DNA of 64,000 nt from Gemmatimonadota bacterium (GTDB lineage Bacteria > Gemmatimonadota > Gemmatimonadetes > Gemmatimonadales > Gemmatimonadaceae): NCBI GenBank assembly GCA_040389905.1, contig JAZJZK010000014.1:32001-96000 (forward strand). Reading direction: 5' to 3'. Of the stretch, positions 24,001 to 27,000 are shown piece after piece. Positions within the stretch are counted from its first letter, which is position 1, and each line of letters begins with the position of its first letter. Made by a program: the position numbers.

Positions 24001-27000
24001 CGCGTTCATGTGCGCCGGCCTCACTTCGCGTTCGATCCCGGCCTCATCCTGCGCGTCATCCGGTTGTCCGGCGCCGCGACGTTCCAGGTGTTCATCGGGA
24101 TGGCGAGCTGGATCGGACTCGTGCGGATTGTCGCGCAGTTCGGGAGTGCTGCGCTGGCCGGTTACACCATCGGGTTCCGGATCATCATCTTCGGGCTCCT
24201 GCCGTCCTTCGGCGTAGCGAATGCGGCCGCGACGATGGTGGGTCAGGCGTTGGGTGCGAAGAAACCAGAGCGTGCCGAGACGGCAGTGTGGACAGCGGCG
24301 GCGTACAGCGCGGCGTTCCTTGGGTTGGTGGGGGTGCTGTTCGTCGTATTCGCGGGGCCGATCGTCGATCTGTTCACGAGGGAAGCCGACGTCGCACGCT
24401 ACGGCGTTGGCACACTTCGCACGGTGGCCTGCGGGTTCCTGTTTTATGCCTACGGCATGGTGCTCACGCAGTCTTTCAACGGTGCAGGTGACACACGCAC
24501 GCCGACGGTGATCAACTTGATCGTCTTCTGGTTGCTCGAACTGCCATTGGCGTGGTTTGCGGCGGATTATCTCGGGTTCGGGCCACAGGGGGTGTTCGTC
24601 GTGATTACAGTGGCGTTTTCGTTGCTCGCGGTGGTGAGTGCGGTGATGTTCAAGCGAGGAAGTTGGAAAACACGCGTCGTCTGATACCACCGACCGCCAT
24701 CATCTCGAGCTCCCAGCCCGGAGGACTCAACTTGATTGAGGAACGGATCTGACGGGTGCAACGGAAACAACACGGAACTAGTGGTCATCAAGGACTCTCG
24801 GCGAGACCAACCGGTAGAACTTTGGATCGGGGCCGTAGTGAAGAACAAGCCCCACGTCGATGGAACCGCAGCGAAGACAATTGAGTAGCTGACGCTGAGA
24901 TGTTGGTGGAAGAATAGCGGACGACTTTGCTTCAACCACGACGCGTTCTTCCACCAACAAGTCGCATCGATACCGCCCCGCGATGAATCCCTTGTAGTAG
25001 ATCATTACAAGCGCCTCCTGCCTTACATGAAGACCACGAAGGCGTAGTTCAATCGCGAGAGCGTTCACGTAGACTTGCTCGAGGAAGCCAAACCCAAGTG
25101 TGTTGTACGTCTCGTAGAACGCGCTGATAATGGTACCTGTGAGCTCCCGCTCCAGGAGTCGACCCCTTTGCGCTCGATCTGGCTGTTTCCGTTGCATCCG
25201 TCAATATCCGCTCCTTAATCTGCAGAAGCGTCATCAAATTCACTCAGCCCGAATCATTCGAGCGAATCTCCGAGTATCAGATGCTTTTGAACAACTCGAA
25301 CGGCTGCCTGCACGCCCGGCACCAGCATACCGCCTTGCACGCCGTCGATCCGTATTCCGAGCGAGTCTCCGTCTCATACGAATCGCAATACGGACACTGG
25401 ACTGAAGGTCGCACACGCAGCAGTTGCACGAGGTCGCCAGGGGAATCTGTCCGCAGCGGCGGCGCTATTCCATATGCCTTGAGCTTTGCCCTGGCTTCCG
25501 GCGGAATCCAATCGGTCGTCCACGCCGGCGCATAGACCGTCCGCACCAACACGTCGGCAACGCCCGCCGTTCGAATCGCGGAAATGATATCCGCCTCGAT
25601 CACCGCGATTGCCGGACATCCACTGTACGTCGGCGTCACCGTGACGATGACCGCGCCAGACGAATCGACGGACACATCGCGCACGATCCCAAGTTCCCGC
25701 ACGCTCAAGACCGGAACTTCGGGATCCATCACCGAATCGAGAATCCCCAGGATGTCCTCGCGCGTGAACGCACGAGGCGCGACGCCGTCTACCACGTCGC
25801 GCCTGGATGCGACCGCGCGACGATCTGCATCTCGGCGAGCATGTGGCCCAGGAACTCGGTATGCGCGCCGCACCTGCCGCCGCGCGCACTGGCGGCGCGC
25901 GGCACATCGTGCGGAACGGTCAATGTCGCGCGATCCAGCACGTCGCGCACGAGCGTATCCCACTGCGTGCGCACCGCAGACAATTCGGGTGCGGCGCCAG
26001 CCTCGAGCATCGTACGATCGACATCGTCCGGCGCGAACAACTCTGCTGTGAATCGCCATAAATCATCGACTGCGCACTGCGCGCGGCGATGACTCTCCTC
26101 AGTACCGTCGCCGAGCTTGAGCATCCATTCACCGCTATGGCGGACGTGGTACTTCGCTTCCTTCAATGCTTTCGCGGCAATGGCTGCAATCTCTGGATCG
26201 CTGCCCTTGGCGAGTCCGTCGAGCATCACCACGGCATAGACGTCGAAGAGGAACTGCCTCGCAATCGTGAACGCAAAATCGCCGCGCGGAAGTTCCACGA
26301 GCTGGCAGTTCCTGAATTCCACGGCCTCGCGGAAGTACGCGAGTGCGTCCTCGTCGCGCCCCTTCCCTTCCTCTTCGCCCGCCAGGCGGAGAAACATGGT
26401 CGCCTGGCCGATGAGGTCGAGCGCGACATTCGACAGCGCGATGTCCTCCTCGAGGATCGGACCGTGACCGCACCACTCACTCAGCCGGTGGCCAAGAACG
26501 AGGCGATCATCCCCAAGACGCAGCAGCAATTCGACGCGCGCATTCGGCGGTTCGACAGCAGCGGGTACAACGGACGGCGCGGTCATACGCCGCGAACGCC
26601 GCGGGGCACCTTGTAGAACTGCGGATGACGATAGGCCTTGTCGGCACCCGGATCGAAGAAGGGGCCGGCCTCTCCGGGTGATGATGCGGTGATCGCCCCC
26701 GCGGGCACCACCCACAGCGAGATCACCCCGCCACGACGAGCGTACACGTCGCGCGCGTTCTGAAGTGCCTGCTCCGCGTCGGTTGCGTGGAGCGAACCGG
26801 CGTGCTCATGCGGCGCGCCTTGCTCGCTCTGCGTGAAGACCTCCCAGAGCGGCCACTGGCTGTCTGGAGCGATGGCCTCGGCTTGCTCGGCCGCCGCGTC
26901 GGGCTGATTCAACACCGTGCTCGACACGCGCTACGCCGCTGACGATGCGCGAGCAGCACGCTGCTTCGACGCATATGCACTCGCCGCCTCTCGCACCCAC

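Follow-up and report, generated by a model that had tools for sequence, protein, structure and literature searches.

Scattered small gene families of a Gemmatimonadota genome share a predicted competence promoter with DNA-uptake and recombination genes

REP/REPIN elements with their RAYT genes combine an enzyme gene framed by repeats with many gene-less hairpin copies. SsnA is a GIY-YIG nuclease whose gene is likewise flanked by repeats and which, according to the accessible portion of PMC11893778, cuts its repeat in single-stranded DNA and alters transformation. Enzymes of another nuclease fold act in transformation itself: the available text of 10.1101/2024.02.06.579203 describes YraN and CoiA as PD-(D/E)XK endonucleases that cut single strands and process the D-loop of transformation, and states that the insertion of heterologous DNA requires two D-loops and ComM. 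Other kinds of genes have been placed under competence promoters, as set out in the excerpted accounts of the toxin-antitoxin pair toxTA of Haemophilus influenzae (PMC6957337) and of the methylase DpnA of pneumococcus (PMC3573125).

Neither trigger nor substrate is known for the GxxExxY, four-helix-bundle, Uma2 and clan-AA protease families, whose hypothetical genes are common; PDDEXK_3, the GxxExxY family, is classed as 'Unknown' in the consulted part of PMC3424549, and the accessible text of PMC8700078 merely names four-helix genes. The genome-wide survey's note on a Gemmatimonadota genome had stated that its searches showed no tie of these small genes to competence. The literature that we searched led to the same outcome for GxxExxY, four-helix-bundle and Uma2 genes, with the proviso that supplementary regulon tables could contain such genes, and searches by family accession and on sigma54 and comM in competence likewise showed no tie of this kind.

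The host genome (assembly GCA_040389905.1, a member of the Gemmatimonadaceae) measures 5.08 Mb with a GC content of 63%. Within the window, a stretch of 64,000 nucleotides from contig JAZJZK010000014.1 (contig positions 32,001 to 96,000), an ORF at 24778..25197 on the minus strand encodes a GxxExxY protein of 139 aa, matched by TIGR04256 (100.5 bits against a cut-off of 35) and by PF13366. The G37-E40-Y43 motif is invariant across 36 aligned GxxExxY sequences, and the window protein keeps the conserved E40, D79, E89, K91 and Q103, of which D79, E89 and K91 are the D...ExK catalytic residues of the PD-(D/E)XK fold. In the QxxxY motif the near-invariant Y107 is replaced by C, a substitution that may leave this copy impaired. 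The predicted structure (pLDDT 90) is similar to Cas4 SSO0001 and to exonucleases of the lambda type, with a best E of 5e-4; in this model the fold is a Cas4/lambda-exonuclease-like PD-(D/E)XK, and nuclease activity is predicted. The insertion site is flanked on the left by a MATE efflux gene (23257..24684, plus strand; gene call and profile) and on the right by paaD, which encodes a phenylacetyl-CoA epoxidase subunit (25277..25795, minus strand; profile).

Matrix scoring places a competence-type promoter box at 25227..25247 on the minus strand, about -50 to -31 from the ATG. Its core, GATGACGC, lies at 25235-25228 (minus strand), the ATG of the GxxExxY gene follows 38 nt past the core start, and the part that reads TGCR in the consensus given below is TGAG here. 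A -10-like hexamer, GATATT, occupies 25203..25208 on the minus strand, 19 nt past the core, with 5 nt between it and the ATG, and the transcript is predicted to be leaderless. The gene is bracketed by inverted-repeat arms. The upstream arm, composed of CGGAT-like words, has a 20-nt core at 25184..25203, overlaps the start codon and reaches about 25220; the downstream arm at 24750..24769, just past the stop codon, is 95% complementary to it. A single strand of this cassette folds with its arms paired (z -4.4, 100 shuffles), and a repeat search found a perfect 14-bp inverted repeat within the ORF (24901..24959, arms 24901-24914 and 24946-24959). The promoter box lies outside the arms, yet within the inserted DNA.

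The consensus TGCR-N7-GRTGACGC-N19-NANNNT-N5/7-start is common to uptake and recombination genes and to the small genes. It stands ahead of comEA, comEC, comM, yraN-recA, radC, ssb, recQ, a pilB-like ATPase and minor pilins, one promoter motif thus preceding both uptake and recombination genes in the manner of a competence regulon, which supports the view that the motif marks genes of DNA uptake and transformation-recombination. Pfam searches gave a census of 3 GxxExxY, 5 four-helix-bundle, 10 Uma2 and 4 retropepsin-like genes, and a fifth retropepsin-like gene came from the motif scan itself. With fresh gene calls, a matrix of box and -10 built from 9 competence or recombination sites only gave at least 13 bits to 20 of the 23 family genes and to 32 of the 4302 remaining gene calls (Fisher p about 1e-37, the paralogues not being independent). 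By family these were all three GxxExxY and all five four-helix genes, 8 of 10 Uma2 and 4 of 5 retropepsin genes, so that the three below 13 bits are two Uma2 genes and one retropepsin gene. A box-only matrix found 17 of 24 small genes, with a GIY-YIG gene now counted, against 56 of 4321 others; this background count and the preceding one are approximate, because the gene caller misses some atypical genes, among them the window gene and the true start of comEA.

Conversely, when only 14 sites of family genes go into the matrix, it finds radC, recQ, comEA, comM, comEC and yraN, the last standing ahead of recA-recX, as well as the pilB-like ATPase and two minor pilins (fimT- and pilV-like), and its box-only version recovers ssb. 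Of 37 sites, 36 have A2 and all have T6 in the -10 hexamer, in a register chosen within 1 nt that leaves 33 of the 37 unshifted. The survey's note had claimed that the four small families carry the competence motif, mostly at equal spacing; the rebuilt matrix returned the same 20 of 23, and the start codon falls at +38 to +40 in 28 of the 37 sites. Its further carriers, a GIY-YIG gene, a type IIG-like methylase and several antitoxins (two Phd, two RHH and one HTH_37, with three added by a refined scan), each proved to have the motif. The PLD-SNF2 helicase that it listed has one too, at a site inside the defence cluster and not at its head.

The refined scan also placed a site before the obg-dprA operon, the second best new match genome-wide, and another within aroE, some 480 nt ahead of comF, the fifth best; comF probably belongs to the regulon. 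A second pilB-pilT-pilC operon is without a site of its own, the only one being on the four-helix gene ahead of it. Judged by their shared promoter sequence, the GxxExxY, four-helix, Uma2, retropepsin-like and GIY-YIG genes are likely to be co-regulated with competence, the best-supported of our conclusions, and 'switched on with DNA uptake', as the note had put it, stands for them as a prediction.

Some of these genes, like the window gene, are bracketed by repeats. In this genome flanking inverted repeats accompany all three GxxExxY genes, the one GIY-YIG gene and two of the five four-helix genes; they were found at none of the 10 Uma2 and none of the 5 retropepsin genes. Among Gemmatimonadales relatives they occur at 39 of 47 four-helix and 10 of 13 GxxExxY genes and in Acidobacteriota at 17 of 23 and 5 of 7, respectively, compared with 9 of 338 size-matched control genes and, for yraN in both groups, 5 of 36. 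The GIY-YIG gene, which lies outside the window (PF01541, 107 aa), has perfect flanking repeats of 44 nt. Short gene-less hairpins with CGGAT words like those of the arms stand at 54 intergenic places in the genome.

The insertion site of the window gene could be followed in relatives. Among 21 searched, 15 have paaD and 12 have a MATE gene beside it. Six of the 12 junctions are filled by a GxxExxY gene, at 45-60% protein identity, and six are unfilled: in three the junction measures roughly 20-60 nt, one holds only a hairpin of similar arms, and the remaining two hold a repeat-rich spacer and another ORF, respectively. Both gain and loss of the cassette are compatible with the paaD tree.

From the geometry of the motif we infer that an activator site lies near -41 and that the -10 is of the sigma70 type; the box would bind an activator of sigma70 polymerase, and most transcripts would be leaderless. 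By analogy to SsnA and YraN/CoiA, we somewhat favour a reading in which the small genes are induced with competence and the armed ones act on incoming single-stranded DNA and pass from strain to strain by transformation. A cassette would enter as a single strand, and its arms would pair into a stem, looping out the gene and leaving the flanking homology free for RecA and ComM-YraN. Nuclease-fold products would then act on hairpin or D-loop DNA by cutting or processing it, in the manner of SsnA and YraN/CoiA, and this would favour either gain of the cassette or its collapse into a gene-less hairpin; in this way armed cassettes could move by homologous transformation via conserved flanks. The stem and cutting steps leave out Uma2 and retropepsin genes, which have the promoter and are without arms, and we know of no nuclease activity in four-helix-bundle proteins. 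It is possible, if on balance doubtful, that GxxExxY and four-helix cassettes are a widespread class of transposase-free selfish elements living through natural transformation, which would take a promoter of the host's comM/yraN type, be expressed only when single-stranded DNA enters, fold out via their arms, tilt recombination to their own gain and leave gene-less hairpins behind.

The absence of arms from Uma2 and retropepsin genes also suits another account, in which the small genes are co-induced with competence but defensive, the small nucleases and proteases, the toxin-antitoxin pairs and the restriction or helicase genes all guarding the cell as long as its pili and DNA pores stand open, with the repeats due to something else. 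One of the Uma2 copies is hit by the PADLOC candidate PDC-S03 (E 1e-24), type IIG restriction-modification models recognise the methylase and DISARM- or BREX-type models the helicase, PIN toxins lie behind three of the motif-carrying antitoxins, and SsnA, in the accessible portion of PMC11893778, reduces transformation by DNA that contains its repeat. On the other hand, no PADLOC model matched the GxxExxY, four-helix or retropepsin proteins, the small genes are scattered singly between housekeeping genes and not gathered in islands, and defence leaves the arms, the empty sites and the gene-less hairpins unexplained. We regard this account, the main rival, as unlikely overall, although it could well be right for the Uma2 genes, the toxin-antitoxin pairs and the methylase.

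A wider stress regulon, answering to single-stranded DNA, starvation or a stationary-phase signal, could also include competence genes, and the small genes would then have no role in transformation. PafBC and DriD, activators of sigma70 at shifted elements, control regulons of such a damage or stress type, and recQ, ssb, radC, yraN-recA and the toxin-antitoxin pairs would suit a damage or dormancy response. Against this stand 13 SOS and repair genes (lexA, two uvrA, uvrB, two uvrD, ruvB, ruvC, radA and recF/G/O/R), together with priA, xerC and xerD, whose upstream regions all score below 8 bits with the competence box. The full set of controls, 23 in number and all below that value, also took in the immediate upstream region of comF and six other pilus genes; most were identified by short motifs, with lexA and comF confirmed by Pfam. 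A separate, LexA-like element with the direct repeat TTCGG-N6-TTCG(G/T) was found 14 times between genes and precedes, among others, lexA (twice), recA, an imuA-like gene, ruvB and a uvrD; this pattern was respecified after a first SOS-box pattern had given no match. With SOS genes scoring low and possessing a different box of their own, we rejected the motif as an SOS/LexA box. Since comEA, comEC, the pilins, dprA and comF are moreover genes of uptake or transformation, a general stress regulon seems to us quite improbable.

The motif was compared with other known elements. CRP-S half-sites have a spacing of 6; the only symmetry in the column counts of our box is GCG...CGC, 12 nt apart, unlike the symmetric CRP-S site, and likeness to CRP-S, ComK and the ComX/cin-box was rejected because the column counts do not match. 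An ECF sigma gene lies directly behind ssb. As reader of the motif an ECF sigma is disfavoured, the invariant A and T of the -10 pointing to sigma70, and short-motif searches of the genome, which are insensitive, found no CRP, WYL or TfoX-type regulator.

Beyond this genome, the survey's note had reported low scores for many relatives, and with the strict matrix distant relatives do score low, even at comM and radC, since the core changes from relative to relative, with GCR-N4/5-WWY-GRT and the spacing retained. We therefore retrained the model on comM, radC and yraN upstream regions from 15 relatives in three families of the order, 39 of 40 of which gave a site; comEA was omitted, its start positions being uncertain. 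At a threshold of 10 bits this order-wide model finds 27 of 46 four-helix genes (from 15 relatives, and part of those known) and 3 of 10 GxxExxY genes (after dropping L078, L079 and L082 as partial or second halves), together 30 of 56. The corresponding figures are 1.9% for dinucleotide shuffles, 2 of 156 neighbours (one yraN, one recA) and, in this genome, 131 of 3841 genes. At the paaD site the model reaches the threshold in four of the six cassettes and at no unfilled site. Uma2 and retropepsin genes were treated in this genome only, and the tests in relatives cover the four-helix and GxxExxY families. The link that the note had extended to relatives is thus strong for four-helix genes and weaker for GxxExxY genes, and the data support a connection between motif and small genes in three families of the order.

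A different promoter type was met in Acidobacteriota, for which we used 26 genomes, 24 of them drawn from the class of one of the other two. TTGC lies 9-17 nt before the start of comM or yraN in 10 of the 26, and the 20 sites, picked for TTGC alone, have G at the two -24 positions in 17 and 15 cases; this is how a sigma54 promoter is laid out, its consensus being GG-N10-GC at -24/-12. A sigma54-type rule finds 14 of 19 comM/yraN genes in the 10 TTGC-chosen genomes versus 2 of 26 in the others. In the TTGC-chosen genomes GG-N10-GC stands at leaderless distance before 14 of 27 small genes (four-helix and GxxExxY, from five genomes only) versus 3 of 85 neighbours, and a matrix version gives 13 of 27 versus 1 of 85; neither comEA (4 records) nor radC (2) showed the element. 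None of the Acidobacteriota small genes scores above zero with the Gemmatimonadales model, and of the 56 small genes from Gemmatimonadales the sigma54 rule finds 10, its background being 459 of 3852. The element swap and these cross-model failures suggest that the small genes follow the promoter type of the host's comM/yraN, a shared sigma54 core not being proof of a shared activator, and that four-helix and GxxExxY genes may have been recruited in two phyla under different promoter types. No shared element was seen by eye in the Bacteroidota (two genomes), Pirellulales (one) and Dehalococcoidia (one), whose competence genes were too few for a count.

This exchange of elements bears on the idea that each family took the competence promoter once and copied it along by neutral hitch-hiking, with no selection. 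The Uma2 paralogues are indeed alike beyond the motif, so that about five independent captures should be counted and not twenty. The motif is nevertheless kept in cassettes whose proteins are only 45-60% identical, it drifts together with the host's comM/yraN version, and in another phylum a sigma54-type element has taken its place, a swap that largely refutes hitch-hiking, which we hold to be very improbable.

Among genes with a leaderless-type -10, a box score of 5 is reached by 27 of 39 four-helix, 1 of 5 GxxExxY and 12 of 556 ordinary genes. As at least seven of these 12 are regulon or family members and the shuffles score so rarely, a generic leaderless or AT-rich promoter signal is scarcely credible as the source of the motif, even though the order-wide model is degenerate and era and a few other housekeeping genes score with it.

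Co-regulation with competence would tell when these genes should be sought and on what substrate, single-stranded hairpin or D-loop DNA, and it would give the repeat-bracketed cassettes a route of spread. In the available text of 10.1101/2024.02.06.579203, transformation is proposed to cure genomes of parasitic DNA; elements timed to transformation, if such they are, would therefore be a notable counter-strategy. The work also yields a predicted competence promoter for Gemmatimonadales and a sigma54-type promoter of comM/yraN in some Acidobacteriota.

Set beside the described systems, the promoter resembles the CRP-S/Sxy arrangement (PMC1635313), in which an upstream site beginning with TGCG lies at a fixed distance from a sigma70 -10 before uptake genes; the CRP-S site is symmetric with the half-site TGCGA, whereas the box here is asymmetric with a GRTGACGC core. 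The cassettes share with Ssn/NTS a small single-domain nuclease gene, inverted repeats and many gene-less repeat copies, and the GIY-YIG gene of this genome, single-domain and flanked by inverted repeats as in the Ssn family, resembles ssnA, with its activity predicted by that resemblance. GxxExxY proteins differ in having the PD-(D/E)XK fold, and four-helix-bundle proteins are unrelated; moreover, the accessible portion of PMC11893778 reports no competence promoter or regulon for ssnA, whereas the motif is present on the genes here. YraN/ComM and CoiA/RadA offer the parallel of PD-(D/E)XK enzymes in transformation, and yraN and comM both belong to the motif regulon; YraN and CoiA are conserved single-copy core genes, whereas GxxExxY and Uma2 genes are patchy and multi-copy, the former also repeat-bracketed. 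With REP/REPIN-RAYT the cassettes have in common a repeat-framed enzyme gene and many gene-less hairpins, but their protein has a PD-(D/E)XK fold in place of an HUH/Y1 transposase, a host competence promoter stands outside the arms, and they are known from repeats and from filled and unfilled states of one site, not from transposition. Finally, toxTA and DpnA, in the excerpts cited above, provide a precedent for the antitoxin and methylase members; these are single loci in one species, whereas the motif described here links no fewer than five families and more than 20 scattered loci.

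All eight Uma2 genes of the genome under study (G000) that carry the competence promoter motif, for example at C14:190970 and C5:267245, are preceded by an out-of-frame ORF that starts with ATG or GTG at +38/39, counted in nt from the start of the motif core GRTGACGC, and that runs for 46 to at least 50 codons across the Uma2 start. The Uma2 start codon itself lies at +77 in most of the eight, an arrangement that raises the possibility of leader control of Uma2.

The motif was also found ahead of genes of other kinds. Strong sites head a 181-aa truncated ABC-ATPase-like gene (locus L008:3028-3570) and a 100-aa gene (L014:2237-2536) for which Pfam and NCBIfam gave zero matches; both are puzzling members of the regulon. 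At C64:1794-2246 (L013) a motif-bearing retropepsin gene and a second, dnaE2-like gene for DNA polymerase III alpha are divergently oriented, and the motif is oriented toward the protease. The motif-bearing ssb (L017, C34:30190-31370) is followed after 97 nt by a gene for an ECF sigma factor, which could be a member of the regulon or its regulator.

Among pilus-related loci, a motif-bearing pilB/GspE-like ATPase has a NUDIX domain fused at its C-terminus (L015:1620-3620), and a four-helix-bundle cassette with the motif stands immediately ahead of the pilB-pilT-pilC operon (L035, C9:40348-45344). No competence-motif site of the operon's own was found at this locus, and the motif on the cassette might drive it.

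In two more distant Gemmatimonadales genomes, G035 and G042, a third, GCCATTC-like word 50-70 nt upstream of the start seems to be common to yraN, GxxExxY and four-helix genes (loci L174, L176, L198, L250 and L251). A sigma54-like site was seen at one comEA-like gene (L143).

A second repeat family, of the GIY-YIG arm type (GTCACCC..GAGCG..GAAGG), is scattered over intergenic regions, including the aroE-comF gap (L328) and those upstream of uvrA2 and an imuA-like gene. Within the coding sequence of the window's GxxExxY gene, a perfect 14-bp inverted repeat (24901-24959) spans the catalytic ExK codons.

Finally, a genome scan of G000 yielded 14 intergenic matches to a direct-repeat box, TTCGG-N6-TTCG(G/T), which stands ahead of lexA (twice), recA, an imuA-like gene, ruvB and a uvrD (C10:75539-75563, C66:16116, C60:760, C15:135845, C12:66516), and which is a candidate for the LexA box of this lineage.
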